Of a stretch of DNA of 64,000 nucleotides, positions 7,147 to 38,788 are shown one piece after another (the first letter of the stretch is position 1; every line of letters starts with the position of its first letter). Made by a program: the position numbers and the translations under genes. Origin of the DNA: a virus (Duplodnaviria > Caudoviricetes); the IMG/VR virus record IMGVR_UViG_3300010327_000802, positions 1 through 64,000 of that record; one strand, 5' to 3'. The notes below the pieces were generated by a model that saw nothing but the letters and a program-made list of their open reading frames with translations, did no database searches and was not told the origin of the DNA.

Positions 7147-7779
7147 TTAAATAACCTCTCCCCCTCTTGAAACTCCCTTAAAATCAGCCGAGGGGGCGGT
7201 TTCGTCATGTATCTTTTTTAGATCTTTCAATATTTTTTCCTCTTCAGGGGTCTTTCCCCGTATCGCTTCTATTGTGGTTTGTGCTGGCATAGAGTTACCT
7301 AAATCTAACATTCTTTCATAGATTGTCTTATTCTTTTTAATAATACTCATTACCTTTTCTAATTCTTCATCTGTTACATCTCCAGAAAAAGCTTTAATAC
7401 TACCTGAAACCAGAAGAGATCTAAGACCTCTAGACCCTAATAAACTTTTCTTAATTTCATCCGGAAGAGAAGATAGAGATAATATTGCTCTAGGTTGTAA
7501 TGAATACCCAGCAGCATCAGGTAGAATAATAATTTTATCAGTCATATTCACTAATATTTCTATATCCTCCGCATCAATTTCGGATTTAGCTAGTTGATTA
7601 ATTATTTCAGCGGTATCACCTTCAACAACAATCGAACCAGCTCGCTTTACTAGATCTACTATATTTGTTACTTCTTTTTTAATTTCTTCTTTTATCTGAG
7701 TCTCCTCAGCTAAGGCTTTATCTTGATTATATTTTACTTTCTTTTCCTTGTTTAAGTTTTTTTTATCTTCATTATCCAT
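7147..7779 (-). CDS. Hypothetical virion-associated protein after MCP
   Basis: AGGAGG RBS, 210 aa, charged N-terminus. Confidence 0.75.
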   Translation of the reverse strand: MDNEDKKNLNKEKKVKYNQDKALAEETQIKEEIKKEVTNIVDLVKRAGSIVVEGDTAEIINQLAKSEIDAEDIEILVNMTDKIIILPDAAGYSLQPRAILSLSSLPDEIKKSLLGSRGLRSLLVSGSIKAFSGDVTDEELEKVMSIIKKNKTIYERMLDLGNSMPAQTTIEAIRGKTPEEEKILKDLKKIHDETAPSADFKGVSRGGEVI

Positions 7780-7802
7780 AATTACCTCCTATATATTTTT
7801 TT

Positions 7803-7830
7803 GGGGGGGGAGTTAATTATCCTCCCCCCC
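7803..7830. other. G/C-run stem-loop after the MCP gene
   Basis: GGGGGGGAG/CTCCCCCCC stem; followed by an A-tract rather than a U-tract on the coding strand. Confidence 0.6.
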
Positions 7831-7845
7831 TCTGTTTAGTTTTTA

Positions 7846-8850: not shown

Positions 8851-8863
8851 ACTTTATCCCTCC

Positions 8864-9415
8864 TTACACCAAAACAGGACTAAACCAAACTACCATCATA
8901 TTAGGTGATGTCGTTGAATCAAGCGCGAGAACAACCCCATACCCAGCTGTGTCAGAAGTAGCACCTCCAGTAGTAGCAGGTTTCCATACTGCGTAGCCAA
9001 CTGAACCTACTGTAACCGTACCGGGGACTAATACCGTACCCACAGAGTAGGTTCCAGCAGCGTCAAATGGGGCAGTTTCATCATTTGGTCCTTTAAACAA
9101 AACAGCGTAGCAAGGAAAAGCCAAAATTGTTACCATTCCTTTATCCACAAAAGGCTCTGTTGGTCCTTTGTGGTTTTCCATTGCTATACCAAGAACTGTA
9201 TTTCCACTACACCCCTCTACAGTGTAATCAATTGAGTACTGCCAGTCATATGGTGTATATGGCAAATTTGTAGCCAATTCATCAATATACGAACCACTAA
9301 AACTGCCAGTACTTATTCCCATTGGTGAACCACCAACCCACAAAGTAGTGGGGCTTGAGGGAACCTTAAATTCCCCGAATTTTATTGCCCACTTTAGATC
9401 TGGTCTTATAGCCAT
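8864..9415 (-). CDS. Putative capsid decoration/cement protein
   Basis: 183 aa, Gly/Thr/Val-rich beta protein immediately upstream of MCP. Confidence 0.65.
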   Translation of the reverse strand: MAIRPDLKWAIKFGEFKVPSSPTTLWVGGSPMGISTGSFSGSYIDELATNLPYTPYDWQYSIDYTVEGCSGNTVLGIAMENHKGPTEPFVDKGMVTILAFPCYAVLFKGPNDETAPFDAAGTYSVGTVLVPGTVTVGSVGYAVWKPATTGGATSDTAGYGVVLALDSTTSPNMMVVWFSPVLV

Positions 9416-9483
9416 TTTATACCTCCTTGATTTACTTCAATGAACGGAGCATACTTTACTCCATTCTGTTTTCTTATAGCCAT
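9406..9483 (-). CDS. 25-aa mini-ORF MAIRKQNGVKYAPFIEVNQGGIKWL (missed by the ORF track)
   Basis: GGAGG RBS 4 nt before ATG; fills the gap after 9494; overlaps the start of the decoration gene. Confidence 0.6.
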   Translation of the reverse strand: MAIRKQNGVKYAPFIEVNQGGIKWL

Positions 9484-9493
9484 TTTACCTCCT

Positions 9494-10699
9494 TTATACG
9501 ATTTCTCTTAAATCGTGCACAACTCCATCATCATCTACAAGCAGCTGAGCATCTTCTGGCATATTTTCAAGAATTTCAGAAAGAGCTTTTAAATTTTTCT
9601 CATCGTAAGTAGCATATACTTTTCTATATTGATTTTTTAACTCTACTGGTATTATTTCTTTTGCTATTAGTTGGTCTACTAAATTTTCTACCAATATAGA
9701 AGAAGTTTTCTTTTTGTCCTCTTTAAAAGTTTCTCTCCCAAAGACAGTCTCCCCTTTAGAATCTAGCCCTTTTGGAAGATCCTCTCTACCGAAAATCCTC
9801 TCATCTTTCTTTCCGCCGACATCTTCTCTTCCTATTGTTGGTTTCTCCTTTGACATAAACCTCTTAAGGGGTCTTAAGGTCCTTGTTGGAATATCATAGG
9901 TGTAATATTCAGGGGGTTCTTCCGTAGATTTTACTTCAATAGAAGCTTCCTTAGGATCAATAACTAAACTAGCAGTAACAGGTAAACTTGTAACTTTATC
10001 ATTAAAAGTAAATGTAAGTGAAACCCTTCCTGTAGCTTTATCAATTGAAATAGTTTCAACAGATATGTTTTCAAAAGGAGCACCAACTAAATCAGAAACA
10101 GACTTTAATACAGCATTTACAGAAATCTCTCCAGATTCTTGGGGGACAGTTTCTGTTGGTTGCTGCACCTCTTGTGGGGTCTCAGATACTACTTCATTAA
10201 CGTTCATAGTATCCTGGGTATTGCCCACCCCTCCTGGATTAATTTCTATATTTTCAACTCTGTCTGGTCGTTCCATACCTTCCTCCGCAGTCTTTGCCAA
10301 AAATTCTGTGGCTTTTTCTTTAATAGAAGACACCTTTTTTAGTAAGGCATCAAGCTTTTTTTCTATATTTAACTTCTCATCTTTAGAGAAGTCTTTCTCA
10401 AGTTTCGTATTTAATTTTCTATTCATTACATTTTTTCCTCCTTTATTAAGAGACCAATCCTCGTCATATTTAACATTACCTCCTCTCCTAACTTTTTGAA
10501 GATACCTCTTAGTACAACTACATCCTTCTTTTGATTTAACATAAGGTTGTGAATATCTCTTAAGTGGATTATATCGAGGAGAGGATTTATGTCTTTTGTA
10601 AGTTTCTTCAAAATCATCAGCTAAACTTAGTATCTCTTTCTTAGCATCAATAACCTTTTCGACACTTTTTAAAAATTTACTTAAATAATCCTTTGCCAT
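9494..10699 (-). CDS. Putative scaffold/prohead core protein
   Basis: Start reassigned to the ATG after AAGGAGG (MAKDYLSKF); highly charged; KTAE and KEAS motifs; helical C-terminus typical of scaffolds placed before decoration/MCP genes. Confidence 0.6.
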   Translation of the reverse strand: MAKDYLSKFLKSVEKVIDAKKEILSLADDFEETYKRHKSSPRYNPLKRYSQPYVKSKEGCSCTKRYLQKVRRGGNVKYDEDWSLNKGGKNVMNRKLNTKLEKDFSKDEKLNIEKKLDALLKKVSSIKEKATEFLAKTAEEGMERPDRVENIEINPGGVGNTQDTMNVNEVVSETPQEVQQPTETVPQESGEISVNAVLKSVSDLVGAPFENISVETISIDKATGRVSLTFTFNDKVTSLPVTASLVIDPKEASIEVKSTEEPPEYYTYDIPTRTLRPLKRFMSKEKPTIGREDVGGKKDERIFGREDLPKGLDSKGETVFGRETFKEDKKKTSSILVENLVDQLIAKEIIPVELKNQYRKVYATYDEKNLKALSEILENMPEDAQLLVDDDGVVHDLREIV

Positions 10700-17922: not shown

Positions 17923-19722
17923 TTACTTTGCACCATTTTTAGTATTCCCCTCTAATTTTAAATTTCCGTCCTCCCCAACTTTCAAACGGAAGACTACATC
18001 TGCTGGGATAGCTTTCCCCTTTTCTAACCAAGGGACAATGTAAGTATTAACTAATCTTAATTTTTCCATTATATTTTGCCCATCTGCCCATTTGAACTCT
18101 TTTTCTTCTATTATTGGTTCTTTAGTATATTTAGATCCCTGCCTCTCCCCAATAACTACAGGGAGTTTAAAAGTAGCTTCTTTCCCAGTAGGTCCTATTG
18201 GTGGGGGTATCAGAGCTATAGCTTTCCTTCTCCATTCAGAATAAAAAGGATCAAATATAGTTCCCTCTTCCTCTTCTTTCCAATAACGAACCTCATCGTA
18301 ATCAACATTAAGAACATCACTTATTATCTTCATTGGAAATCCTAAATCTCTCATTTGTCCAACCATACCAACTATAGAAGTACTATCAAGCAAGTTAATA
18401 TTTTTTTGCCACTCAAAAGTAGGTAAAATTGGTTTTCTCTCGGAAAATGGTCTTTTTATTAAGAAAGGCCCCCCTAAATCCGAAGTAGTGGTTTCATAAA
18501 ATTCATGTGCAATAGCAATGGGGAGAAAAAACCTTTCTGTTAACACATTTTCTAATAATGATCTCACAAAGGAATACCTCGCCATCAATACTCTCATAGC
18601 TACTGAGGCATTAGCATATGTAGGACCTTCACCATGGGTAACAGCTTTACTAGTAAATAGAGCAGTTAAAACTCTATCTTCAATCCAGTCAAATTCCTGC
18701 TTCAGCGGAGATAAAGCTCCCCCACCCATAACATATTCAGCCCTTACTGTATGATTAGCCACAAGAGTAAATAATGGGTTTTGTTCTGCTGTTTTTACAG
18801 CTTGCTCTAAAGCATCAATTTGGTCTTGTGTAGCGGGCCATGTATCTGACCCAATATGCCACAATTCCTTTGGGTTAATATATCGCTGAGCAATAGCAAA
18901 TTGAGCTTCACGTAGTTTATCTTCATACAATAAATCTTTCATAACACGAAGAACAATCGAAGTACCACGAGTCATATAAGGGCTTTGTTTTCTCTGGAAA
19001 GGCATAATAAAAAATGGAGAAAGCGGAACAGCTTCCCCTTTTCTTAAAGCTTCAATAATAGCTGGGGGGAGTTTCTCGAGAACTGCTTTATCGAGAGGGT
19101 TCATTTCAGGAGAAAAACTTCTCATTGCTACTTGGACTTTGTATTCTACCGCGTCTTGTCCTCCAGCCAACCATCCTTTATCTTCAACTATTAAATCTTC
19201 TGGGGGGATAAGTTGAGCATCAGTAAATATTCCGGATTCATCATCCCAAAAAAGATAAGTAAATGCTTCACCAAGAAGCCAATAGTCTCTTAAAATTGAA
19301 TATAGTAATAGTAACCCCCCACATGCTTCAAATGATTCTTTATAAATATTCTTAATAATTGGATCAGCTACTTTCAAAGAAAACCTTGATAATGGAACAG
19401 TTGTGTGTAAATCTATTGAGTTTCCTACCATAGGATGAAACGCGTCCCAGTGTCTAAGCCAAGTAATAGTTGTTTTCAAGTCTGTGGGCATATAAAAATG
19501 TACCCAAGACAACATTGGAGAAAACCATCTTGGAGGGTAGTATTCAACTGTAGAACCGGCAGCAGTTTTTGCAATTCCACCAGTAGAAGACCCCCAAATG
19601 ATATTATCTTTACTTCCCATCAAAGAAGCCCTCGTAACTCCACGAGGACTACCCAATTTATTATTTATTTTAGAGGATGTTTTCTTAGCTTGATTATTGC
19701 TTTCCGATTTTTGTCCTTTCAT
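17923..19722 (-). CDS. Portal protein
   Basis: HPMVGNSIDLH, RDYWLLGEAF, RKQSPYMTRGTSIVLRVMKDLLYEDKLREAQ, DRVLTAL segments; 599 aa; upstream of the protease. Confidence 0.85.
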   Translation of the reverse strand: MKGQKSESNNQAKKTSSKINNKLGSPRGVTRASLMGSKDNIIWGSSTGGIAKTAAGSTVEYYPPRWFSPMLSWVHFYMPTDLKTTITWLRHWDAFHPMVGNSIDLHTTVPLSRFSLKVADPIIKNIYKESFEACGGLLLLYSILRDYWLLGEAFTYLFWDDESGIFTDAQLIPPEDLIVEDKGWLAGGQDAVEYKVQVAMRSFSPEMNPLDKAVLEKLPPAIIEALRKGEAVPLSPFFIMPFQRKQSPYMTRGTSIVLRVMKDLLYEDKLREAQFAIAQRYINPKELWHIGSDTWPATQDQIDALEQAVKTAEQNPLFTLVANHTVRAEYVMGGGALSPLKQEFDWIEDRVLTALFTSKAVTHGEGPTYANASVAMRVLMARYSFVRSLLENVLTERFFLPIAIAHEFYETTTSDLGGPFLIKRPFSERKPILPTFEWQKNINLLDSTSIVGMVGQMRDLGFPMKIISDVLNVDYDEVRYWKEEEEGTIFDPFYSEWRRKAIALIPPPIGPTGKEATFKLPVVIGERQGSKYTKEPIIEEKEFKWADGQNIMEKLRLVNTYIVPWLEKGKAIPADVVFRLKVGEDGNLKLEGNTKNGAK

Positions 19723-23627: not shown

Positions 23628-24311
23628 TCACTCTTTACCATCAAACGTAGAAACGTCCTTCGTCTGAGGTGTTTCTTCCTTATTACCCAACTCTTCTCTA
23701 ATATAATTTATCTCCGCTGCGGAGAAAAACTCACTTGGGTTCATAGCTACTTTTTCTAGGAAAGCTTCAAACGGAAATATTCTAGACATCAATAATAAAT
23801 TTCTATTAATTCCTTCTGGACAGGACATCATTAGATATTGTGATACTTCATACCAAAACTCTTCTGTTTTCGTTTTAGCAAGCAGCCTTTCTTTTAATTC
23901 TTCCTCTGTTAATTTAGACTCTTCTAACGAGTCCTCTTGGTATTCTCTAACAATTCTATCCACAAAACGGCTTGCAATAGTTTCAACTGCTTCTTCTATA
24001 GCCTCTCCAAAAAATCCCTCTAGCTCTTGAATCCACATATTGAGATCTGAGGAGGGTTCATACCCAAAGAAAGGCTCCCTTTCTCTGTTAGAAATAGCAT
24101 AACATAAATCGTATGCCCTTTCTACAAGAAATAGATTATACTTATAGTATAGAAAAAGCTCTAATTCAGTATTTCTTTCTATTAGATTAACTAATTCATC
24201 ATAAGAAAGCGAAGAAGTTTTCGAGGTCCCTAAGGCTGAAAGCTTTTCTATAACACGTTCCAATTTATTCTGTATTTTAATAAATCTATTAGGTAGTCTC
24301 TTATTTCTCAT
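23628..24311 (-). CDS. Hypothetical head-cluster protein
   Basis: 227-aa acidic ORF overlapping its upstream neighbour. Confidence 0.7.
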   Translation of the reverse strand: MRNKRLPNRFIKIQNKLERVIEKLSALGTSKTSSLSYDELVNLIERNTELELFLYYKYNLFLVERAYDLCYAISNREREPFFGYEPSSDLNMWIQELEGFFGEAIEEAVETIASRFVDRIVREYQEDSLEESKLTEEELKERLLAKTKTEEFWYEVSQYLMMSCPEGINRNLLLMSRIFPFEAFLEKVAMNPSEFFSAAEINYIREELGNKEETPQTKDVSTFDGKE

Positions 24312-25926
24312 CTTTTTTCTCCCGATAAGGAGATTTCCTTCTATTTCTATTTCTGTTAAATAGCTCTTTACGTATGTCCTTACGCTCTTTCCCTATTAAA
24401 TCGTTTTCCTTCCCATTTTCTTCGTCCTCTTCCTCTTCCTTTTCCTTTTCTCCCTCGTCTTCTTCCTCTTCCTTTTCCTTTTCTCCCTCGTCCTCTTCTT
24501 CATCCTCTTCCTTTTCTTCCTCGTCTTCTTCCTTCTCTTCCTCGTATTCCTTTTCTACCTCGTCCTCTTCTTCCTTTTCCTTTTCTTCCTCGTCTTCTTC
24601 TTTCTCTTCCTCTTCCTCGTCTTCTGTGTCTATAAATACCTCAATTTCCCCAATACTGTCGGTTTCATCTTCCGTCTCTTCCTCTTCTTTCTTAATACGA
24701 GAAAAATCAATACGCTTATCCTCAACAGACTTTGTTATAATATCTGTAATAGTATCAAGTGTTTCCTCTATTGCCGAAGCCATCTCTTCAAATTTTGATA
24801 AAAAGTCCTCTATAATCTTCTGCATACTTGTATCAAGTACAGCCTCTCTTCTTTGTAGGGACGCATAGGCAGGAGCGGTAAGTCTCCTTTCATACCTTTC
24901 TTCTACTTCCTCTTCTTCCTCTTCCTCAAATTCTACCCCTTTAATTTCAGCATACTCTAATATCTCTATATTATAATCATCTATAAGATCTTTCCATATT
25001 TCAAAATAAACATCCAAAGCTCTAATTACATAGTTTATATACCTCCCGAATACCAACAAATCTCTCAAATAAGGTGAAGCATATTTTGAAAAATGTTTAT
25101 AGGAACTAAGCTTTCTAACTTCGACATAATTTAAAACACTCTTTGCTATATCTGCGAGACAATCGATTAATCTTTCTACCTCTTTTGAGGAAGAAGAACT
25201 AATTATAGATCCAGTCTCAAACCCAATTAACACTTCCTTACAATTTTCAATAATCTCCCTACCAATCTTACCCTTCCCTAAAGCTACTTCCTCTAGGGCT
25301 TCTCTAATTAAGGCTCTAAACTTACGTGCCTGCCTAGAGTTTCCGGCGGAAGAAGCTAACTTCTCAGCAATAGCGTAAACTATATTATAAATACCAGACT
25401 TAGGTATTCCCCCACCATAACTATATACAGATACTTGTAGTTTTCTTTTATCCCCTTTGGGATGGATAACATAAATCTTGTCATCAATTAGTTCAACCTC
25501 TTCAGCCAAATTGTAAAGACTATTTATAGCTTTATCAAGTTCTATTTTTACCTTTTTAGTCAAAGCTTCCATTTCCTCTTTTGTTTCTCTAGCTTCGGGG
25601 TTTGTCGCATAAAACTTTTCGGTAAGTTTTTCCATACGATTGGTTAAATCTGCAATCCTTTTTTGTATTTCATCCTTTTCTTTAATAAAATTATATATAG
25701 CATTAAAGTACTCTTTCGCCTCACCCTCAACTGTGATTTCTTTTATAGTTTCTCCAAGAGGAACAACTGGCTTAGTTAAACGGGGTCTTTCCTCTGTTCT
25801 ATCCAGAAATTCCTTTTTACTTTCAGGAGATACAATTTTTTTCTTGATATCATCAACATCGGCTATTTTGCGGATTATCCTATCCGCATTCTTTTTTTCT
25901 CTCAGAAAGTCTTCAAATCTACTCAT
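24301..25926 (-). CDS. Putative prohead core protein with coiled coil and poly-Glu/Asp tail
   Basis: KIAD, KLAS, KYAS motifs; about 90-aa E/D/K low-complexity C-terminal region. Confidence 0.7.
   Translation of the reverse strand: MSRFEDFLREKKNADRIIRKIADVDDIKKKIVSPESKKEFLDRTEERPRLTKPVVPLGETIKEITVEGEAKEYFNAIYNFIKEKDEIQKRIADLTNRMEKLTEKFYATNPEARETKEEMEALTKKVKIELDKAINSLYNLAEEVELIDDKIYVIHPKGDKRKLQVSVYSYGGGIPKSGIYNIVYAIAEKLASSAGNSRQARKFRALIREALEEVALGKGKIGREIIENCKEVLIGFETGSIISSSSSKEVERLIDCLADIAKSVLNYVEVRKLSSYKHFSKYASPYLRDLLVFGRYINYVIRALDVYFEIWKDLIDDYNIEILEYAEIKGVEFEEEEEEEVEERYERRLTAPAYASLQRREAVLDTSMQKIIEDFLSKFEEMASAIEETLDTITDIITKSVEDKRIDFSRIKKEEEETEDETDSIGEIEVFIDTEDEEEEEKEEDEEEKEKEEEDEVEKEYEEEKEEDEEEKEEDEEEDEGEKEKEEEEDEGEKEKEEEEDEENGKENDLIGKERKDIRKELFNRNRNRRKSPYREKKDEK
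24422..24497. repeat. 33-bp tandem repeat (about 2.3 copies) within the acidic low-complexity tail
   Basis: tcgtcctcttcctcttccttttccttttctccc at 24422 and 24455 (1 mismatch), partial at 24488; encodes EDEGEKEKEEE units. Confidence 0.85.
25073..25100. repeat. Dispersed 28-bp direct repeat, copy 1 (copy 2 at 32024-32051)
   Basis: ggtgaagcatattttgaaaaatgtttat; encodes KHFSKYASP. Confidence 0.95.
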
Positions 25927-25928
25927 TT

Positions 25929-27215
25929 TTACACCTCCCTAGTGCCATACTTTCTACGTTTTATATATGCACACATTTTCTTAGCCCGTTCAAGAGACAA
26001 GTTCTTTTCACTCATAAAATATCTAACACACCCACAGAACTTGGACTTTTTTTCTGGAGCATCTGGACAAGTCATTTCTTTAAATGACCCCTTTTCTGTT
26101 TGATACTTTTTGTTCTTTGGTTTAGCGGCTGTTTTTTCTAAATCAGCAAAATTTGTTAAAATATCAGCTGCTTTTGAAAATGAATTAGTTGCATTAATAA
26201 AATAATCATATACCTTGTTAGAAAGGTCTTCTATAAGATTTTTGTAATAATTAACCTTAGTAGAAGCAATTTTTGTAGAACCTATACTTTGATCTTCCAA
26301 GATAGAAGATGCAAGGTCAACTAAATCAAGCACTAGAAGTAGACCCTCTCTACCTACAGAAGAAGCTGCTTTTGATAAGAAATCAGCTGCTTTTTCTATA
26401 GAATAAATTCTCTCTTCATATTCCCCTAATCCTTCTGATTCCTCTACCTCTTCTGCTTCATACAAATCTCCGTACATTTCTCCCAACTCCTCTATTCTTT
26501 TAATAAAAGAAAAGTATCTTTCTTTCGCAACTTCTCTAGCCTCTTCGTATTCATCCTCTGTATAAAAATCAATTATTTCTAGACCAGAAAAATCACAAAA
26601 GGCTACAATATTACCACGCATTCCTTTAATTTTCTTTATTTCTTCATCCGTAAATCCGAAATCTTCATCTTTAGCAAGATAAACTATTTCATCATCAATT
26701 ATTATATACTTAACTGGATGTAAATCATCTGAAATAGAGTAGAGGTCTTCATAACACTCTGAGCTTTCATCTTCTTCAGCACACAAATCTTCTATCCTTC
26801 TCCATTCGGAATCAGAAATAAATTCTAAATAGATGTCGGACTCTTCCTCAGGTTCAATATTTTCAGTTTCTAATATAACTTCAAGGAAATCTTCAAACTT
26901 TGTTTTAAATCCGAGTTTTACTCTAGAAAGTGAACTAAGCTTTTTAGAGTCTATTTTATACCCCCTTCTTTTAAGCTCTCTTATTAACGGAGCCCTATTT
27001 ACTTCACTAACTTTCTTTTCCTTGAAAAATCTATCTAGCTTTTCCGTAATATTAGACCCCTTTTTAGGATTCTTAGCCCACTTAATAAAATTATCAGCAT
27101 GGGTTGAGGGAGATACTTCTCCACTCTCTTTTTCTTTCTTAGCCACTTCGCCAGTTTTACCACCTTGCTTTAATAGATTTTCAAGGTGGGAAAATAATGC
27201 TTCGATATTACCCAT
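25929..27215 (-). CDS. Putative prohead core protein, acidic centre and C-terminal Cys module
   Basis: KAAD, KAAS, KIAS, KTAA motifs; KFCGCVRYFM...AKKMCAYI. Confidence 0.65.
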   Translation of the reverse strand: MGNIEALFSHLENLLKQGGKTGEVAKKEKESGEVSPSTHADNFIKWAKNPKKGSNITEKLDRFFKEKKVSEVNRAPLIRELKRRGYKIDSKKLSSLSRVKLGFKTKFEDFLEVILETENIEPEEESDIYLEFISDSEWRRIEDLCAEEDESSECYEDLYSISDDLHPVKYIIIDDEIVYLAKDEDFGFTDEEIKKIKGMRGNIVAFCDFSGLEIIDFYTEDEYEEAREVAKERYFSFIKRIEELGEMYGDLYEAEEVEESEGLGEYEERIYSIEKAADFLSKAASSVGREGLLLVLDLVDLASSILEDQSIGSTKIASTKVNYYKNLIEDLSNKVYDYFINATNSFSKAADILTNFADLEKTAAKPKNKKYQTEKGSFKEMTCPDAPEKKSKFCGCVRYFMSEKNLSLERAKKMCAYIKRRKYGTREV

Positions 27216-27217
27216 AG

Positions 27218-27595
27218 TTACCTTTCCTCCTTTAATACATCTAACTTAAACCTATTTTTTTCACAAATTTTTTCAAACTCCTCCTTATAATACTTCCCCA
27301 TTAATTCTAACACAGAGAATATTATTCTCCATTCACTGAGATTAGAATCTCTTAAGAGTTTAAATATAAACTCTAACTCTTCTAGAGTAAAATTTTCTTT
27401 ATCCTCTAATATCTTCTTTGTTAGCGGATAAAGAATTGCAATTTCCATAGAAGTGGGAGTATGTTTATCCAATAAAGAAACTATTACATCTTTTACAGTA
27501 ATAACAATTTCCTTTTCTTTATTTTCTTCATCTTTGGCTAAAACTACTAATACTCTGCCAAGTAAATCTCTTACTGGTTCTTTTAAAAATGACAT
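27218..27595 (-). CDS. Hypothetical protein, first gene of the head cluster
   Basis: AAGGAGG RBS after a 150-bp intergenic region. Confidence 0.75.
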   Translation of the reverse strand: MSFLKEPVRDLLGRVLVVLAKDEENKEKEIVITVKDVIVSLLDKHTPTSMEIAILYPLTKKILEDKENFTLEELEFIFKLLRDSNLSEWRIIFSVLELMGKYYKEEFEKICEKNRFKLDVLKEER

Positions 27596-27748
27596 ATAAG
27601 CCTCCTTTTTTGGCTAAATATTTAGTGAACTACGAAATATGATTCATCCAAAAATTTAATTTATTTCTTAGAAACCCTCTATTAACCTTCTTTACAAAGA
27701 AATATATTTAGAATTTTCAACATAAGAGGGTTATAATAAACAATATAT

Positions 27749-28036
27749 TTATTTTTCCACCCCCAATAAATGAATATCTATATCAATATCACCACTGTAA
27801 GATTCAACAACTACTTTTACAGATTTAGCATAAGGAAAAGCATAATCACTAGAATCAAAAATAGCATCCTCTTCTAATAAAACTATATAGGAATAGATAT
27901 TATAGTTTTTATAAAATACCTCTCCGTCTGGAGAAAAAAGAAACGTAACGTCTACACTAACATTAGACTTATTTTTCACATAAACAGAATACCTTGAGTA
28001 TTTTTCAACTTCAAATACCTTCTCTATTTTTGCCAC
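27749..28036 (-). CDS. Small beta-sandwich virion protein
   Basis: YSVYVKN...VTFLFSPDG pattern; resembles 37568..37936. Confidence 0.55.
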   Translation of the reverse strand: MAKIEKVFEVEKYSRYSVYVKNKSNVSVDVTFLFSPDGEVFYKNYNIYSYIVLLEEDAIFDSSDYAFPYAKSVKVVVESYSGDIDIDIHLLGVEK

Positions 28037-28037
28037 A

Positions 28038-28259
28038 TTAACCTCCCCAAACCTTCTTCCAATTGCTTTGGTATTTTACATACAATTCTTTTACCTTAGT
28101 CCAAGTACCATTAGACTTCATATATATATCTTTTAAATTAGTCCAAAGATTTTCTACCTTTACATAAACTCGCTTAACAGCACTTACAACCTTGCCTAAC
28201 CCTACAAAATAGCTATCACTTGAACAATTCCTTTTTAAAAAACCTATAAAATAGCTCAT
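28038..28259 (-). CDS. Small fibre-associated protein
   Basis: Repeated YVK...W motifs (VYVKVENLW, IYMKSNGTW, LYVKYQSNW). Confidence 0.55.
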   Translation of the reverse strand: MSYFIGFLKRNCSSDSYFVGLGKVVSAVKRVYVKVENLWTNLKDIYMKSNGTWTKVKELYVKYQSNWKKVWGG

Positions 28260-28669
28260 GTCAAAATTATCTCTCGAATATAAGCAGGAACTAATTCAGA
28301 ATAGTGAGGACGATTAAAGCTACCTATAAATAAGCCACTATAGCTTACAGAAAAGTTAATTGTTATCTGTTGTTCAACCATATTCCTTATTTCGGGTAAA
28401 GTTTCAACAAAGATATGTTCTCTTGTAGAAAAGTCTGAAAGAATAAAACAAAATTTACTTGAAACACTTCTAGCCATAAAGGAAAGAGTATAAGAACCAG
28501 CGGGCAAATCAAGTACAAATTCATAACTACCTCCAACTATAATATAACTAACTGAATCAATAGTAATAGTAGTATCGGCAGCACGGGTATATAAACTATT
28601 AAAAATTGTTGCCAACATATCTCCAAAGTCAGTAATAGGTGGGAAAAGAAATCCGTCATAGTCAGCCAT
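28256..28669 (-). CDS. Putative virion accessory protein (carbohydrate-binding-like beta fold)
   Basis: Start reassigned to MADYDGFL after GAGG; LPAGSYTLSFMAR pattern. Confidence 0.55.
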   Translation of the reverse strand: MADYDGFLFPPITDFGDMLATIFNSLYTRAADTTITIDSVSYIIVGGSYEFVLDLPAGSYTLSFMARSVSSKFCFILSDFSTREHIFVETLPEIRNMVEQQITINFSVSYSGLFIGSFNRPHYSELVPAYIREIILT

Positions 28670-28671
28670 AT

Positions 28672-29505
28672 CTAGTCCAACCTCACAAAACAACCATATC
28701 CACCACCAACACCAACGTAATGTTTCCAAGCAACTCCATTTATATAAACAGTATCCCCTGGAGATAAACCTAGAGAATTACTATAATTTCCAGTAGCCAT
28801 AACTCCGTCCAATTGACCATGAACAAAATAAGGTGAATTTTGCTCTTGAACTATAGTCTCTAATATCATTATAGTACCCGCCGTAGTTTTGCAACCAACA
28901 TATAAGTCATAGGTGCCACCAACCTTTCCCCAACCATACATTTTTATACTAATGCTGCCTGTGTTGCTAACTAAGGATTTAAAAATTGGAGAACTAACGT
29001 TATTACTACTACCAAGAAAACCCAATGGATTTGAGGTGTAGGAAGAACTCTCACTATGTCCTATAAATAAAACATCTTTTAGTGAAGTATTAAATCTCTT
29101 CGGGTACCCTATATAATTCCCAAAACTCAAAGTTGTATTCATAAAAATGAATCTTTGATGATTAACGAGAAGTATATAGCCCTCTCCTTGATCTGTTGTT
29201 GTGTGCTTAACTATAACAGGCTTATTGGAAGAGTATCCAGTTAACATGGTACGCCCTGTATATGTTTTATTAGTAATATCCCAACCCTCAGCTATACCAA
29301 TAACAGAATAATTATTATAATTATCATCAACACTAAAAATAAAATCTATATCAGAGTTGGGATCAAGGTGCCCATATACTTTCTTATTTGTCCCCGCTTC
29401 TGGATCTACAGAAACCCAATAAGCAGATTGGTCTAACAAATTTTCATCCAAAATAGGTAATAAAGTTCCTACTCCCAGCTGTATTACTCCAGTATATAAA
29501 GCCAT
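28672..29505 (-). CDS. Putative tail fibre/receptor-binding associated protein
   Basis: Start reassigned to MALYTGV after AGGAGG; Gly/Ser/Tyr-rich beta protein. Confidence 0.55.
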   Translation of the reverse strand: MALYTGVIQLGVGTLLPILDENLLDQSAYWVSVDPEAGTNKKVYGHLDPNSDIDFIFSVDDNYNNYSVIGIAEGWDITNKTYTGRTMLTGYSSNKPVIVKHTTTDQGEGYILLVNHQRFIFMNTTLSFGNYIGYPKRFNTSLKDVLFIGHSESSSYTSNPLGFLGSSNNVSSPIFKSLVSNTGSISIKMYGWGKVGGTYDLYVGCKTTAGTIMILETIVQEQNSPYFVHGQLDGVMATGNYSNSLGLSPGDTVYINGVAWKHYVGVGGGYGCFVRLD

Positions 29506-29513
29506 ATTTCCTC

Positions 29514-31058
29514 CTAAATTACAAAACAAATATCTCCATCTTCTCCAACATCAGAAGATGGAACCTCTGGTAATATATAAATTCTATAGCCAAAGGTTAA
29601 ACCATTTTCCCCCTCACTTACCAAAACGGATCTGTTTGATTTACCAGTATAACTGTTTGGTGTATCTTTAATATTCAAAAAGCTATCTAACTTACTCGCT
29701 TTCAATTTATTATTATATACTATTATAGTATCCGCATCAATTTTATTTCCAAGGTAATCTGCTATATCATTCGCATCTATTTTCACTTTACCATCGGAAA
29801 CACCACCTGTTGTTGGAAGTGGGTATGCCCCATAAACTCCATCTTCATTTGTACCTAGATAATAATTTTTACCAAGTACGCAAGTCAAATCACGATAAGA
29901 ATGCACATGTGGTGGAACTGTAGACAAATCTGGTTTATTGATAATAATATCCCAATCTACACTTTTTACATATATTTTATGTGTAGTAGTATTAACCCCA
30001 AGAGTAATATTGTCTATTTTGTCGGTAAGAAACCCTACTACAGTATCCTGTGTATCAGCATAGACTTTACCATAATTTTTTACAAAAACTTTATGAAGAG
30101 TAGTATTAACCCCAAGGGTAACATTATCTACTTTATCTATTATAAAACCACGAATAGGATCTAAACTATCTGCATAAACTTTGCCATCTGAAATATTATT
30201 AGAAACAAAATTTAGTTGAACAAAGTAGAGTATACCGTCTCCAGGCAACTCATCATAAAATTGAAGACTTCCTTCATCTATAGGTGAATAATCAAACTCT
30301 TCAACAAGAATCTGGTTGTTAAGACTAATTAAAATAATCTTAGATGCAACTAAACCTTCAGGTAAAGTTAATATCCCATTTTGGATATTTAAGGTATTTA
30401 CTACATAATAAGCTTTGTATAGTGGTTCTTCTTCGTTATAAGGAGTAGGGCTGGTTTCTAAAATATTAAACCCACCACCACTGCTACTAAGGTATTCAGA
30501 ACAAAAGATAGCATTCAAATCCAATTCAAGCTGATTCCAAATAACAGATAAAGTAGGACCTAAACAACTAGCAATAATCGATTTGAATAAAGAAGAACCC
30601 AGCACCGCCCTCAAACTTATAAGCGTGCTTATAACCTGACGTGTCATACTCCCTTCTACATCTCTTAGAGGATCTATATCTGCACCTTCTTGGTAAACAA
30701 ATTCCCAATCTTGAAATGGATAGTGCTCTTTATAAAGATCATAAATTGAATCCAAATCATCAATTAGTGGTTGTAAAACTTCATTATACTTTGCTAAATC
30801 CTCTTCATTTTCTCCATAACTAATTAAATGTAATATATTTAAAAGTAATTTTAATCTAAAAGCATACTCTCTAGAAAAAACAATCCTAAAAATCCTTTCA
30901 TATAAAGTCTGTTCAGAATCACCTAATAGAAAGTTAACAATGCTGTCTTCCCCCTCATCAACTTCTCCCTCTATAAGTGAAAGTGGGGTAAATAGTTGAG
31001 ATATAATTGTTTCAACAACATCTTGTGGGTTAGATAAGTGAATTGGGCAGTCAAACAT
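29514..31058 (-). CDS. Putative fibre/virion structural protein with internal 38-aa repeats
   Basis: GKVYAD..D...GF..DK.DN.TLGVNTT.HK repeated with 114-bp period; FLNIKDTPNSYTG fibre motif. Confidence 0.6.
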   Translation of the reverse strand: MFDCPIHLSNPQDVVETIISQLFTPLSLIEGEVDEGEDSIVNFLLGDSEQTLYERIFRIVFSREYAFRLKLLLNILHLISYGENEEDLAKYNEVLQPLIDDLDSIYDLYKEHYPFQDWEFVYQEGADIDPLRDVEGSMTRQVISTLISLRAVLGSSLFKSIIASCLGPTLSVIWNQLELDLNAIFCSEYLSSSGGGFNILETSPTPYNEEEPLYKAYYVVNTLNIQNGILTLPEGLVASKIILISLNNQILVEEFDYSPIDEGSLQFYDELPGDGILYFVQLNFVSNNISDGKVYADSLDPIRGFIIDKVDNVTLGVNTTLHKVFVKNYGKVYADTQDTVVGFLTDKIDNITLGVNTTTHKIYVKSVDWDIIINKPDLSTVPPHVHSYRDLTCVLGKNYYLGTNEDGVYGAYPLPTTGGVSDGKVKIDANDIADYLGNKIDADTIIVYNNKLKASKLDSFLNIKDTPNSYTGKSNRSVLVSEGENGLTFGYRIYILPEVPSSDVGEDGDICFVI

Positions 31059-31068
31059 ATTTTATTAC

Positions 31069-32433
31069 TTATTCCTCAAAAACAGTCAAATATCTTTTGG
31101 ATGAAATATAGCCCAACTCAAAAAGATCATGAATATAGTCAAAGACTTTTAGCCCAATATCTATACGATAATACCCATTTGGGATTATAATATCCTCAAT
31201 ATTTTCGTATGCCTTATCTATAGATCCCTGCAAAGTTTGATCCATTCCAACCGCCACAAAAACCCTAGAGTGAGTAGGAACAGAACGAATATACCCCTTG
31301 TCGTCTTTATATATTCCAGCCGGTATATGTTTATACAGATAATCAGGGTTTTTAACTCGAATAATAACATTATCCCCAGAAGTAGGGGAAGATAAGTTAT
31401 CTACATTTGCACAAACTCCTGTCAGCCAATCAGGTGAAATATCTATCCGTTTCATTATTCCTTTAGTTACATCATAAAATATCTTTCCAAGCGGTGTTTT
31501 TATTGCTGGTAACATTATAGATATATGTGGATACCCAAATCTTGATGTATGCTCTAAATAATAAGGTTTTCCATCTTTATAAGAAACAATGGCGTTTATA
31601 TCCACATAGCCAATTCCATAATTCTCCTTATACCACTTTTCATATTTACCAAACATAATTTCAAAAAGATTGTCCACATCACTATTATCCTTATTAAAAA
31701 TAACTGTTCCCATTTCACCAGTCATTTTACCAAGCTCTCCAGGAAATAACCGTTTATGCTCAAAATTCATATTCCAAGGCATAACAAAGCCATCAGGTCC
31801 TACAAAAACTCCCATTGCTACTTCAATACCATCCACATAATCTGTTACAAGAATTTCAGTAGAATCATCAATCCCCTTTTCTTTCAGGTTTTCTAAATGA
31901 ATAACCGCATCTTCATTATCAACAGAAACATAAGTTTTTATACTTGAATCCCCAATTTTATTTAGCTTGATAACAGGTCGATTGAACTCTTCTTCCTCTA
32001 TATCCTTTATAGCTTCAATAATTGGTGAAGCATATTTTGAAAGATGTTTATTTGAATAGACTTTAGATTTTGGGAAATATTCATATATGCCTGCTTCCTT
32101 TGCATACCCTCTATCATTTTCAAGCCTTGTGCCTTTTTCAGATGCTCCCCAAACTAACTTGCCTTCCTCTCTTAACTTATCTGCAGCTTCCCCCCAGAAA
32201 ACATCTGTGAAAATAATTACATCTACGTCATCAACATATTTTTCATAGTTTTCAACAAATTTAACTCCAGCCTCCTCAAGAAATCCCTTTCCGTAAAGAA
32301 TATCAGATTGCTCCGGGGTGCTTCTTTGCCAAGAAACGTAATAATAAACTTTTTCTCCCTCTTCCGCCAATCTATAGGCTATAGATTCAGCTAATCCAGT
32401 GTCAACTATTAGGTATTTCATTTGTGGGTACAC
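31069..32433 (-). CDS. PurD (GAR synthetase)-like ATP-grasp ligase
   Basis: WGASEKGTRLENDR, RPVIK, DYVDGIEV, EHKRLFPGELGKMTGEMG, LEHTSRFGYP, RVFVAVG, YYRIDIG align by eye with PurD motifs along the full length. Confidence 0.8.
   Translation of the reverse strand: MYPQMKYLIVDTGLAESIAYRLAEEGEKVYYYVSWQRSTPEQSDILYGKGFLEEAGVKFVENYEKYVDDVDVIIFTDVFWGEAADKLREEGKLVWGASEKGTRLENDRGYAKEAGIYEYFPKSKVYSNKHLSKYASPIIEAIKDIEEEEFNRPVIKLNKIGDSSIKTYVSVDNEDAVIHLENLKEKGIDDSTEILVTDYVDGIEVAMGVFVGPDGFVMPWNMNFEHKRLFPGELGKMTGEMGTVIFNKDNSDVDNLFEIMFGKYEKWYKENYGIGYVDINAIVSYKDGKPYYLEHTSRFGYPHISIMLPAIKTPLGKIFYDVTKGIMKRIDISPDWLTGVCANVDNLSSPTSGDNVIIRVKNPDYLYKHIPAGIYKDDKGYIRSVPTHSRVFVAVGMDQTLQGSIDKAYENIEDIIIPNGYYRIDIGLKVFDYIHDLFELGYISSKRYLTVFEE
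32024..32051. repeat. Dispersed 28-bp direct repeat, copy 2
   Basis: ggtgaagcatattttgaaagatgtttat; 27/28 identical to 25073-25100; encodes KHLSKYASP. Confidence 0.95.
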
Positions 32434-32728: not shown

Positions 32729-34621
32729 CTATTTTTCTAAATCTGCCATTCTACCCGAAAACCTTACTCGACCACCCTTCCCCGCTCCACTAAAGGGATT
32801 ATAAACTCTAGCAACTGGAGCAGGACTACGTGATGGTTGAGGGGGGGATAACATGGCTAAAGGTGAAACTTGTGATACTGTCATGTAAACTGGTCTAGCA
32901 ACAAAAAAGTTAGGAGAATTTTGTGAAAAGTATGCATGTTCATCAGATTCTTTAGAAAGTTTAAATACTTTTCCAAACCAAGAGATAGCACTAACTACGG
33001 CATCAGTAATATCTTGATAACCTACAATTACTCTCGGTTTAGAGTTTCCTCTAGGAACAGCTAAAGCCCTTACCTGTTCGAGAAACTCATAAGACTCAAG
33101 CTGATTGGGAAGTCTTATACTAGAAGGTGCAGTATAAAATAAATTTTTCATTAAGTAATAATCATCTAGAACTACTGGTTTATCATCCCATTCATGCGAG
33201 ATATTTTTCCACCCAGCCGTATTCCACTTATCTGATCTGATTTTTGTTATTCTTAACATTCTTGAGATTTTAACAACAATCTCAAAGAAATTATACACAT
33301 CAATTGTTGTTCCCGTTTCTTTATCCGTTCTCCAAACCATAAGCGTATCTACTACAAAAGTAGGTTGGTTGTTTAATATTTCTCCGTGAGCAACACAAAG
33401 AGCAGCCATACAATCAACTTCGCCAGCGTCAACTCCCATAAAATATTCTACTGGTTTAGGAGGATAATTTAGTTTTAAAGAAAGAGGATTATACCTATAC
33501 TTATACCCTCCAGTCGTAGTACGAACCCTCTCTGGTTCGGCAGATAATAATGAAGGTCTTTCTGAATCGATAAATAAATCTACAGGAGTTCTATCTAAAA
33601 TATCAAACCATTTAGCCCCAGATACTGATAAAGGTAAAGCTATGTATTTTGAAACACTAGAAGCATAATCTCTACTAAAAGAAGAAGCAAGTTCAATTGG
33701 AACATCATACTCCTTATTAAACTCTCTTACATATAGTTTAAAGGTTTCTTTCGATTCAAATCTACTAGCTGGGGCTACTTCCCAAGTAGGATAGTGTGAA
33801 GTAATTGCATTAGGTATCTTACCCTCATTTATCTTTTTATATAGATTATAAGTAAAATCAACATCTGAAGTTAATCTTGGATATGAGGTTACTATCCCAA
33901 GATAGGGCAGTTCTCTTGTAGAACTAGTCAAAGTTTCAAAGATTTTATTAGCATTTGGCTGCCCCGAAGCCGAAATATGACCTGAAGCTTCATCCATAAC
34001 CCAACCAATTAGTGTGAGTCCTTCAAAAGATTCATTTCTCGAAGGTACGGACATAAATTCTAAATTAATCGCATCAAACCGTATAGTTTCAGTAGTCATT
34101 CTTATCTTAGGTAATCTTGTATCAGCTACGTCTTCATTTATAATCTTATTTCCACTCTCAATAGGAAAACTACCAAAAAAAGTAGACCTGCTTATACGGG
34201 CTTTTACTCTATCAAATATTTTCTTCGACATATTCTGGTTGGTAGAAACAACTACAATTGATAATGGATCCGAAGGAGATAAGCCAAAGAAACTACTAGG
34301 GTTGGGTTTTAAAAAATGTAACAAATAAATAATATAAGTCATTAGTGCTGTGCTTACAGTTCCTTTTCCACTTCCTTTCCCCCATAAAAGGACAACAAGG
34401 TTAGGATGATTTCCTTTCTTAAAAAACTTTTCAGCACTACCTTCCCAACCAGCTTTACCTAAAGCCCTTTTACACTCTTTTTCTTGGTTAGGAGTAAACT
34501 TTACTTCTTTAATATCTTTATACAAAAAAGATAGAAAATCCCAGGGCTCTGTGTGTGGTAAGCTTATTGAGTGTCGTTCCTCGTAGCTTTCAAAAACTAC
34601 CCTCCAATCTAAATCAGCCAT
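32729..34621 (-). CDS. terL: Terminase large subunit
   Basis: Walker A WGKGSGKG, Walker B WVMDEA, nuclease YFMGVD and C-terminal QDITDA. Confidence 0.9.
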   Translation of the reverse strand: MADLDWRVVFESYEERHSISLPHTEPWDFLSFLYKDIKEVKFTPNQEKECKRALGKAGWEGSAEKFFKKGNHPNLVVLLWGKGSGKGTVSTALMTYIIYLLHFLKPNPSSFFGLSPSDPLSIVVVSTNQNMSKKIFDRVKARISRSTFFGSFPIESGNKIINEDVADTRLPKIRMTTETIRFDAINLEFMSVPSRNESFEGLTLIGWVMDEASGHISASGQPNANKIFETLTSSTRELPYLGIVTSYPRLTSDVDFTYNLYKKINEGKIPNAITSHYPTWEVAPASRFESKETFKLYVREFNKEYDVPIELASSFSRDYASSVSKYIALPLSVSGAKWFDILDRTPVDLFIDSERPSLLSAEPERVRTTTGGYKYRYNPLSLKLNYPPKPVEYFMGVDAGEVDCMAALCVAHGEILNNQPTFVVDTLMVWRTDKETGTTIDVYNFFEIVVKISRMLRITKIRSDKWNTAGWKNISHEWDDKPVVLDDYYLMKNLFYTAPSSIRLPNQLESYEFLEQVRALAVPRGNSKPRVIVGYQDITDAVVSAISWFGKVFKLSKESDEHAYFSQNSPNFFVARPVYMTVSQVSPLAMLSPPQPSRSPAPVARVYNPFSGAGKGGRVRFSGRMADLEK

Positions 34622-36897: not shown

Positions 36898-37557
36898 CTA
36901 ATTCCGCAATTCTAATTCCGGAATAAAGATATACGGACTTACAAATACGAAATCCGTGACATCATAAAGCCCCATGCTATGGATAACAACCTTAAGTGGG
37001 TCGCAAGTAGCTAAGCTGTGGAATTCTATTCTGCAGGCGGGGGTTTGGGCTGTTTTATTAGATGGGAATTGCGTAATTAAAGAAGGTAGCTGTGTACGGA
37101 GATTAAGTGGAGTGGTAAAGTTCAAAGCGTTATAAAGAAAACCTGCCCCACATCTTACTCTTGTGAAGTCGCCTGGTTCTGTTGCCAACGTTATTTGTGA
37201 ATAATAAGTGAGGTTTTGCCCCTCAGTGACGGTATAGTCAACTACAACCACGTATTTATGGTTAGCTAAATAAGTAAAATTATCCGCTGAATTTATTGTG
37301 AGATTAACCCCATCAGTCCCTGCCACTTTAGTAAATGTTATTTCCATACCGTCATCCACTTGTGCCAAGCTGTAAGTCAGTGTATATTCTGTGTCTTTTT
37401 CTGTAAATACCCAACCAGTAGGTACACCACCACTCCAAGTCTTAAAATCATAATTAGCATTAAGGGGTGGTATCTTCTTGTCTTTTATAAGTTGCAATAA
37501 CTCTGTCATATCTCTTGGTCTTTCTATGTCAACGTATGGTTGAAATTTTCCTTTCAT
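36898..37557 (-). CDS. Putative virion protein with carbohydrate-binding-like domain
   Basis: NYDFKTWSGGVPTGW start of a CBM-like jelly roll; RBS present. Confidence 0.5.
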   Translation of the reverse strand: MKGKFQPYVDIERPRDMTELLQLIKDKKIPPLNANYDFKTWSGGVPTGWVFTEKDTEYTLTYSLAQVDDGMEITFTKVAGTDGVNLTINSADNFTYLANHKYVVVVDYTVTEGQNLTYYSQITLATEPGDFTRVRCGAGFLYNALNFTTPLNLRTQLPSLITQFPSNKTAQTPACRIEFHSLATCDPLKVVIHSMGLYDVTDFVFVSPYIFIPELELRN

Positions 37558-37567
37558 TTATCACCTC

Positions 37568-37936
37568 CTATTGTGCTATCTGTCTTGCTATTTTAACTTC
37601 AATATCAGTAGCTTTATTTACTGTTATTTTTAATCTACCCCAAATAGCACTATAGGGATTTAACGGAAGCACCACCCACTCAGCATTAGCCACCAGTCCA
37701 GTTGCTAATACTATAGCCCCAGTAGCATTTTTAGCACACCATTCTTCACCATAGAAAAAAGGACTATATTCTATGTTTACATTAAGTGTAGCGTCGTTAC
37801 TTGCTTTAATATAAACAGCAAAGTACTCATACCCTGAAACCAGGAATTTTCCCGTGTATTTAGGGGTTGTATCCAAAAATTTAAGAGTATAGGTGTCTAC
37901 ATGAGTCGACACTTCAAGATTGCCTTTTTCTGTCAT
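37568..37936 (-). CDS. Small beta-sandwich virion protein
   Basis: FAVYIKA...VNIEYSP...W pattern; paralogue-like to 27749..28036. Confidence 0.5.
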   Translation of the reverse strand: MTEKGNLEVSTHVDTYTLKFLDTTPKYTGKFLVSGYEYFAVYIKASNDATLNVNIEYSPFFYGEEWCAKNATGAIVLATGLVANAEWVVLPLNPYSAIWGRLKITVNKATDIEVKIARQIAQ

Positions 37937-37938
37937 AT

Positions 37939-38415
37939 TTACCTCCCAAATTGTTTTAAAAACTTTTCGTATCTGGTCATAACCGAGCGTACATATTGCT
38001 CGTTGTTCTGACCATTATAAGCACCCATCAGCCTTTCTAAATTTTTTATCTTTCTCTTGTTTTCCAAATAATCTAAGTGCTTTATACCATAGGTCAAATT
38101 CTCAAATGGACTGAACAGTTTAGTAAGCCAGCCTGTCATTCCGTACACCCTCGCATTGAATCCCATTATTTGCATTAAACCAAACGAGCATTTCTGTAGA
38201 AATACCTCAGTATCATAAGAACAATTTTTAGGTTTATGTTTCTTAGGGTCTTGTATATATTTGCTTGAAAGTTTAGGCTCATATCTTATAGCATAAGGCT
38301 CAAATGAACTTTCTTGTTCTATAATAGCAAGCACCAGCGGTAGATTGACTATCTCGAATTTATAGTCTTCAAATATTTTCTTTATATATGAAATAAGTTC
38401 TTCTATTTCAATCAT
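37939..38415 (-). CDS. SLT-family lytic transglycosylase (probable endolysin)
   Basis: AIIEQESSF (catalytic Glu), SFGLMQI, NLTYGIKHL, AYNG. Confidence 0.9.
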   Translation of the reverse strand: MIEIEELISYIKKIFEDYKFEIVNLPLVLAIIEQESSFEPYAIRYEPKLSSKYIQDPKKHKPKNCSYDTEVFLQKCSFGLMQIMGFNARVYGMTGWLTKLFSPFENLTYGIKHLDYLENKRKIKNLERLMGAYNGQNNEQYVRSVMTRYEKFLKQFGR

Positions 38416-38442: not shown

Positions 38443-38788
38443 TGGAGGTGGTGGGAATCGAACCCACGTCCGAATATAAAAAACTATTAGATACTACGAG
38501 CCTATCCTGCTTGATGTTTCTTTGTTTAGCTAACAGCAGGCGATCAGCTAAACAAATACTCTCAATCGGTTTCAGTTCTCTTTTCGAGAGTAAAAGAGAA
38601 CCAGCCCCCTTTCTATTACATTTCGCTTCCAAGAAAGAGGGAACTTGGAAGGAAACGTACTGCCATATTAAGCAGTATAAGCGTAATTGTAGTTGTCGCT
38701 TGTTTTTTTGTGGATTTTTTGACGGGGTACCCACCCCCCGGCTCGCATCTAATAGCTTTTTATTATCCGTCGACATCCTTTCACCCCC
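38443..38788 (-). ncRNA. ssrA: tmRNA (346 nt), predicted tag (A)DNYNYAYTA
   Basis: 5' GGGGGTGAAAGGATGTCGACGG; 3' T-arm GGACGTGGGTTCGATTCCCAC and acceptor CACCTCCA with G3-U70; helix 2 AAAAAGCTATTAG/CTAATAGTTTTT; pk1 CGGGG..GTGGG..CCCCG..TCCAC; tag frame 38697-38668 with H5 TACTGC/GCAGTA; CCA not encoded. Confidence 0.97.

Follow-up and report, generated by a model that had tools for sequence, protein, structure and literature searches.

A DNA-level repeat between two unrelated phage genes marks a nine-codon insertion in a PurD-like ligase

Introduction

The T4 capsid targeting sequence (CTS) of the internal proteins IPI-III and Alt is N-terminal, ends at a prohead-protease site through which it is removed, and is common to the packaged set, and it has been shown experimentally to load foreign proteins into the head (PMC3012670, PMC9026906). 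Prohead proteases recognize short motifs, such as L/I-x-E in the case of T4 gp21 and A/S/G-x-E in phiKZ and SPN3US (PMC5694885, PMC10052503), and the herpesvirus assemblins cut x-A-S/T after the alanine (PMC4498786). Short pieces of DNA can also be copied within a genome: template switching at microhomology gives templated insertions (MMB-TI) of the MMBIR (break-induced replication that is mediated by microhomology) or fork stalling and template switching (FoSTeS) type (PMC8421209). Here, we analyzed a 28-nt repeat in the first 64 kb (hereafter, the window) of the 73.2-kb IMG/VR virus record IMGVR_UViG_3300010327_000802, a Caudoviricetes phage with a CheckV completeness of 37%. One copy of the repeat is in an ORFan gene (24301-25926), and the other is in the gene of a PurD-like ATP-grasp ligase. 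Both copies encode almost the same nonapeptide, which contains the motif K-x-A-S, and we refer to this nine-codon stretch as the cassette. To our knowledge, K-x-A-S has not been reported as a phage motif.

The repeat and the insertion in the ligase gene

Positions 25073-25100 and 32024-32051 were identical at 27 of 28 nt, and the only difference was A/G in the plus strand, that is, T/C in the coding strand. The match could be extended to 25073-25105 and 32024-32056, with 30 of 33 nt identical. The two copies are separated by 6951 nt (3 x 2317), lie on the same strand, and are both in frame in minus-strand open reading frames (ORFs). The pair was the top dispersed ungapped match in the window, with a score of 25 (+1/-2); the next pairs scored 18 or less and corresponded to ribosome-binding or low-complexity stretches. 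In 120 Markov simulations (order 2, 3, or 5), the maximum scores were 16-22. Two independent origins of the same peptide would give identical codons at the seven fully matching positions only about 0.3% of the time with the codon usage of the window. Both copies use the minority serine codon TCA twice, and the other K-x-A-S sites mostly have TCT. A third copy of the cassette was not found in the 73.2-kb record, allowing up to three mismatches.

A total of 309 homologues were detectable for the ligase. We aligned the ligase with 14 of them (58% to 32% identity), and none of the 14 had KHLSKYASP, which appeared as a clean nine-column gap even at 58% and 50% identity; the codon-level comparison agreed with an insertion of nine codons. 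At the junction, homologue P0004 reads KIYSS followed directly by VKEAIDD and P0005 reads KVYNS followed by LSEAWEA, while this phage has the nonapeptide between KVYSN and IIEAIKD. The inserted DNA, read from 32049 down to 32023, is AAA CAT CTT TCA AAA TAT GCT TCA CCA. In the ligase gene, the repeat proper leaves out the final base of the insert, so that it includes 26 of the 27, and takes in the 2 nt (AT) of junction homology just upstream.

Because the nonapeptide is an insertion unique to the lineage of this ligase, the ligase gene is the recipient. A chance match is excluded for practical purposes, since the edges of the repeat meet the boundary of the indel to within 1-2 nt. The repeat is a DNA-level copy and not a case of convergence, and the insertion into the ligase gene was produced by DNA-level copying.

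The AlphaFold2 (AF2) model of the ligase, obtained from the alignment, was confident, with a predicted local distance difference test score (pLDDT) of 85.9 and a predicted template modeling score (pTM) of 0.87. In this model, the insert is within coil 127-136, between strand 123-126 and helix 137-146. The profile alignment placed the insert between TFTS and FDEA of the Bacillus subtilis PurD, immediately ahead of the helix running to the VIK strand, which binds ATP. In PurD structures, this is where the N domain meets the B (lid) domain.

A preliminary description of this DNA, made from the sequence alone, had claimed a 27/28-nt match 7 kb apart, synonymous positions included, and a DNA-level copy into the enzyme gene that forms a clean insertion in a loop before the B-domain helix. 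These claims were borne out by the extended match, by the coincidence of insertion and repeat edges, and by the gap in all 14 aligned homologues, which makes the 9-mer exclusive to this phage lineage. The assembly artefact that it had raised as a concern was discarded with the data that follow.

Presence of both copies across strains

The exact ligase protein was encoded on eight contigs; the six places listed for them are from different samples (ENA, NCBI, JGI, and Logan). Every locus spanning the two sites had both copies and the same T/C difference. When JGI metagenome contigs were scanned with the 26-mer of the cassette, only the same phage was found, with at least 99% nucleotide identity, and the 26-mer was absent from viral_contigs and from 185,579 species genomes. 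The ligase stretch was detected, whole or in part, in 20 runs, which belong to 15 studies (2016-2025). Of these runs, 16 contained half or more of its sampled words, three metatranscriptomes included; runs X20-X24, with small word shares, were not used as evidence. Contigs of four further runs, among them one of 160 kb, were aligned to 24900-32300, and both copies were bridged without indels wherever they were covered. The same was true of the most divergent strain (X12), with 57 differences in 7.4 kb. All the protein variants of the 90% clusters keep the cassette. Since both copies and the T/C difference recur in independent assemblies and in runs from many studies, the repeat is not an artefact.

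The nearest relative of the ligase beyond this clone has 58% identity. All strains share both copies and the T/C difference, and therefore the event is older than the spread of the sampled clone. The insert is absent from the homologue with 58% identity, so the event is younger than that split.

Templated insertion as the favored origin

We consider it moderately probable that the patch is a one-off templated insertion, of the MMBIR or template-switch type, into a tolerant hinge loop, where it was kept as a passenger. In the course of replication or of the repair of a break, a 3′ end within the ligase gene (...TCA AAT) would have paired through a few imperfectly matching bases with ...TCC TAT in 24301-25926, copied about 26-27 nt, and then returned to the ligase gene. 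The product survived because the frame was kept, no stop codon was brought in, and the patch fell within a coil where the N domain hinges with the ATP-grasp lid. The copied K-Y-A-S would be tolerated, and the ligase would be cut between A135 and S136 only if it met the protease inside proheads.

As in the MMB-TI (PMC8421209), the insertion is tens of nucleotides long, has the sequence of a nearby locus of the same genome, and is probably a one-off event; the few bases of perfect or imperfect homology at MMB-TI junctions may have a counterpart at the 5′ junction here. The MMB-TI are known mainly from eukaryotic and cancer genomes, whereas the present case is in a phage. It also differs in that 6.95 kb separate it from the probable donor, and in that the product, in frame in the hinge of an enzyme, has become fixed in a clone present in many digesters. 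What sets this copy apart is its fixation in all sampled strains together with its cargo, a motif that is independently enriched.

Several observations weigh against this origin. The microhomology is short and clear at one junction only. At the 5′ junction, the abutting AT is accompanied by a TCA-AAT/TCC-TAT match at four of six positions; at the 3′ junction, there is only TTATT, offset by 2 nt, and no clear homology otherwise. Both matches are weak in AT-rich DNA. In addition, a random stop-free patch of nine codons carries K-x-A-S less than 1% of the time, so pure neutrality needs a coincidence. This estimate is based on 17 motifs in 8,240 aa of the head-gene block (17 x 6/8240 = 1.2%, in the same frame) and 19 motifs in 20,267 aa of the window (0.6%), and the values are lower for other strands and frames.

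The remaining objections concern the source of the patch. As 24301-25926 has no homologues, nothing comparative indicates that the cassette is native there; there could be a third source, and it could lie in the ~60% of the genome that is outside the record. One contig of low depth, from run X14, follows the window as far as 25097, where the cassette has its coding-5′ edge, and from there continues as GGAATGAAATTCAGCAAGGATATACTTGTC. With five loose ends in 7.4 kb, the chance of one falling within the cassette is about 2%. The loose 30-mer of this contig was absent from the phage record and from viral_contigs and genome_contigs, and two look-ups by exact protein also found nothing. The break hints at another junction at the cassette edge, and the contig may be a chimera or a relative whose homology starts at the cassette.

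This locus is a clean case in nature of the movement of short coding segments between unrelated phage genes, with a known recipient, edges exact to 1-2 nt, and a structurally defined hinge. The same nonapeptide in two very different proteins is also a built-in test of the K-x-A-S protease code. Cleavage of the ligase would show short-patch copying to be a route that brings viral proteins under maturation-protease control; without cleavage, the insertion would be an ordinary mutational scar.

The K-x-A-S motif and selection for a cleavage site

The ORFs in 7147-32433 contained 17 K-x-A-S sites versus 2.5 ± 1.5 in per-protein shuffles, and the rest of the window had 2 versus 3.1 expected. The controls K.SA, K.AA, R.AS, and K.GS were flat. 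Among the 8,000 a.bc patterns, K.AS ranked first in the block from the major capsid protein (MCP) to the terminase large subunit (TerL), with 17 occurrences versus 2.77 expected (p 7e-9; ~6e-5 after correction), with the low-complexity E.EE below it. K.AS was not among the top patterns of the genes outside the MCP-TerL block. The codons of the motif vary (AAA/AAG for lysine; GCT/GCA/GCC/GCG for alanine; TCT/TCC/AGT/TCA for serine), which shows that the signal acts at the protein level. The motif was present three times in the protease candidate and was lacking in the major head, portal, and terminase proteins. In three related loci, where the samples were small, the enrichment did not reach significance.

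K-x-A-S may reasonably be taken as the putative recognition site of the head maturation protease, which would cut between the alanine and the serine. Assemblins and phage prohead proteases are related. As with the T4 gp21 and phiKZ/SPN3US motifs, a short motif occurs in many head proteins and a protease gene is present in the head module (PMC5694885, PMC10052503), and the A-S at the putative scissile bond is as in the assemblin sites (PMC4498786). In contrast to those prohead-protease motifs, K-x-A-S is a cleavage motif predicted from sequence statistics, and it is missing from the major head and portal proteins.

The cassette carries K-Y-A-S, an instance of the motif, and an adaptive transfer of a protease site is the rival explanation that survives best, although we judge it unlikely. 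The patch would have been fixed because the ligase gained, in an exposed hinge, a site that is cut between alanine and serine. When the enzyme is in or near proheads, the head maturation protease would then detach its N domain from the ATP-grasp body and so turn it off or on at maturation. The first rank of K.AS in the MCP-TerL block, its lack of enrichment elsewhere, and its action on proteins agree with this explanation, as do the encoded head maturation protease and the cutting of x-A-S/T by proteases of the assemblin family (PMC4498786). The insert is in a coil that is accessible in the AF2 model and is invariant in all strains. The ligase gene is within the structural block, beside the terminase gene, and a terminase-like gene is a few genes away in L003 and L011. 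The low frequency of the motif in random patches is the one real argument for selection.

However, the viral homologues of the ligase (P0004-P0009) have no K-x-A-S anywhere in their sequences. The role of K-x-A-S as a cleavage site is itself predicted from statistics, and the related loci, with their small samples, showed no significant enrichment. A cleavage site alone does not load a protein into the prohead. The cassette resembles the T4 CTS in being a short peptide common to otherwise unrelated proteins and in having a prohead-protease site, here a putative one. Nevertheless, the T4 targeting peptide is N-terminal and common to many cargo proteins (PMC3012670), and the cassette is internal (residues 129-137 of 454 and 277-285 of 541) and occurs in two proteins only. 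The more specific proposal that selection fixed the patch, by putting a working K-Y-A-S site in the hinge of a packaged or prohead-associated ligase that is cut at capsid maturation, seems to us more doubtful still. If true, it would be a natural recruitment of a cleavage site through an inter-gene DNA copy and would give a first handle on a new K-x-A-S maturation code in this phage group.

The preliminary description had proposed that the cassette is a portable K-x-A tag for the prohead protease and for packaging. The protease part of this proposal agrees with the K-Y-A-S in the patch, with the enrichment in the head block, and with the encoded protease; the packaging part found no support, given the internal position of the cassette and the inability of a cleavage site to recruit cargo by itself. 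The tag does not appear to be portable either. There are only two copies in the whole record, and the other 17 K-x-A-S sites match the cassette at 6-13 of 30 non-motif bases and have no common flanking DNA.

The probable donor gene and a possible third source

The search for homologues of 24301-25926 with a word index and with full HMMER (1.84 billion representatives) found only its own cluster, and there was no match in Pfam, PHROG, or the ESM Atlas. The label of core protein that it had received in the preliminary description is thus without backing. As for positional orthologues, the contigs of the ligase homologues with 50% and 58% identity stop short of the syntenic position. The protein is predicted to be mostly helical, with a Glu/Asp-rich tract of ~100 aa near the end and a basic tail. 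The single-sequence AF2 model was poor (pLDDT 46.5), and in it the cassette is in a break between long helices. The cassette is invariant in all five variants of the protein in the clone. The strains differ in the acidic tract by an 11-aa in-frame indel polymorphism (EEEDEGEKEKE, residues 476-486), and there are four point substitutions outside this indel; none touches the cassette.

The gene 24301-25926 is the probable donor of the cassette. The sole basis for the direction from this gene to the ligase is that the ligase is the recipient. The alternative is that the cassette is mobile or repeatedly copied, or comes from a different gene, in DNA of the genome that was not sampled, and that 24301-25926 is not the donor. 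We think this very unlikely. It is favored by a record that covers only ~37% of the genome, by the lack of homologues that would show a native cassette in 24301-25926, and by the loss of homology of the X14 contig exactly at the cassette edge. Nonetheless, the 26-mer was found in no other context (nil in viral_contigs and genome_contigs, and only the same phage at ≥99% in metagenome_contigs). Furthermore, the cassette is not palindromic, has no significant fold, and has no partial copies in the 64 kb.

Other sources of short repeats were also considered. Small in-frame mobile palindromic elements like the Rickettsia palindromic elements (RPE) were ruled out by the presence of two copies only and the absence of a significant common fold. 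Pairs of template and variable repeats (TR/VR) of the diversity-generating retroelement (DGR) type, CRISPR spacers, intron or intein scars, and insertion sequence (IS) footprints were rejected as well: the repeat is too short and has one mismatch, and there is no reverse transcriptase (RT) or array. In some strains there are IS605/TnpB insertions, and these lie elsewhere (~27797).

A nucleic-acid site in two coding sequences

The preliminary description had also mentioned a DNA or RNA site embedded in the coding sequence. A site of this kind that both genes retained, whether it binds a protein, acts as a promoter, is the target of a small RNA (sRNA), or serves in recombination, could explain the near-perfect conservation that includes synonymous positions, but the young age of the copy accounts for this identity equally well. 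The insertion also created a 6-bp inverted repeat at 32012-32031 (GCTTCA-N8-TGAAGC), a hairpin in which the Ala-Ser codons that came in pair with the older Glu-Ala codons. The local mRNA fold has a z of -2.1 there, and the inverted repeat is probably incidental. The folds differ between the two contexts, and shuffled sequences folded at least as well as the copy in 24301-25926 (z +0.8). The cassette has only these two copies, and it overlapped no promoter-like match in the promoter and terminator scan. Searches with half cassettes gave AT-rich background only. With no further copies and no common RNA fold, we regard a nucleic-acid site as highly improbable.

A chance match or an assembly artefact can be set aside as barely conceivable, for although short matches are commoner by chance in AT-rich DNA with biased codons and many windows were scanned, the score of 25 exceeds the simulated maximum of 22, and the match meets an indel relative to 14 homologues and recurs in independent assemblies and runs.

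The ligase as a PurD-like enzyme

In the Pfam scan, the ligase matched GARS_A (3e-08, 34.2 bits; cut-off 27), GARS_C was below its cut-off (29.4 bits versus 34.8), and GARS_N was not matched. The best Foldseek matches of the ligase model were GAR synthetases, with TM of 0.70-0.78. The profile of the ligase family aligned to the PurDs in the PDB (2xcl, 2yw2, 1gso) from about residue 77. The ATP-grasp domain matches PurD (GAR synthetase), the C domain probably does, and the overall fold is PurD-like, whereas the first ~76 residues do not align to PurD profiles. No other purine genes are near the ligase gene. Since the catalytic ATP-grasp residues are invariant across the alignment, the ligase is probably active.

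The viral ligases P0004-P0009 form a clade with only ~32% identity to cellular PurDs. In the contigs examined, a terminase-like gene shares the neighborhood of this clade: it adjoins the ligase gene here and is the one a few genes away in L003 and L011. In L011, two tandem PurD-like ATP-grasp paralogues (7221-10089) are near the terminase gene. No related loci were found in viral_contigs with the ligase protein or with the 428-aa protein encoded next to the ORFan gene.

Genome context and neighboring genes

The phage DNA was found in contigs and runs from biogas fermenters, anaerobic digesters, activated sludge, and wastewater. One run (X12) has a contig of 160 kb, and therefore the phage is large. 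Every gene of the window is in the minus strand, and the GC content is ~33%. The features discussed here are shown in Table 1; the terminase gene adjoins the ligase gene on its upstream side. The protease candidate had no family match in Pfam, and an ESM Atlas search with the 406-aa post-portal protein gave no matches.

Table 1. Coordinates of the genes and cassette copies in the window
Feature	Position	Strand	Evidence and remarks
Major head protein	7846-8850	-	phrog_2522, E 1e-36; K-x-A-S count 0
Head maturation protease candidate, 378 aa	14095-15231	-	phrog_18299 "head maturation protease", E 7e-17; three K-x-A-S sites
Portal protein	17923-19722	-	phrog_16240, E 1.9e-41; K-x-A-S count 0
ORFan gene with cassette copy (probable donor), 541 aa	24301-25926	-	K-x-A-S at residues 189 and 281
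Cassette copy in the ORFan gene	25072-25098	-	Codons K277-P285, KHFSKYASP; repeat proper 25073-25100, extendable to 25105
PurD-like ATP-grasp ligase (recipient), 454 aa from GTG; 450 aa from ATG at 32421	31069-32433	-	Pfam GARS_A, homologues, fold
Insert in the ligase gene, 27 nt in frame	32023-32049	-	Codons K129-P137, KHLSKYASP; counted from the GTG start
Terminase large subunit	32729-34621	-	phrog_2, E 4e-08; PF27249 on the identical protein in other contigs

In the 428-aa protein encoded at 25929-27215, only a Cys-containing C-terminal module of ~60 aa (residues 353-425; FKEMTCPD...SKFCGCVRYFM...CAYIKRRKYG) matched other proteins; the remainder had no match. Its counterpart, at 57-66% identity, is a module placed after the S78 prohead-protease domain of other phage proteins. 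We read it as a head-assembly module that has probably been shuffled.

Strains of the clone differ in mobile and mosaic DNA. At ~27797 (between 27595 and 28036), some of them (loci L004, L012, and L013) have an insertion of 1.2-1.4 kb with an OrfB_IS605/Cas12f-like TnpB, which, judging from the sequences, is an IS insertion polymorphism within a clone of 99% identity. L004 has a second TnpB-type gene at the end of the contig. The segment L004:1221-2254 has 89.8% identity to 36945-37975 of the window over ~1 kb, with flanks at 99.5%, and by this pattern it is a mosaic replacement patch.

Downstream of the ligase gene, a 514-aa gene with a weak match to a tail-protein PHROG contains a tandem duplication of 111-114 nt with 73% identity (29963-30187). 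ARAGORN called a tmRNA gene in the minus strand at 38443-38788, with the tag peptide DNYNYAYTA, which overlaps a short ORF. The intergenic gap at 60301-60435 has four to five tandem copies of the 27-nt unit ACTTTACCAACTTTACTATACGATTAT; these units resemble iterons and may be an origin or a binding array.

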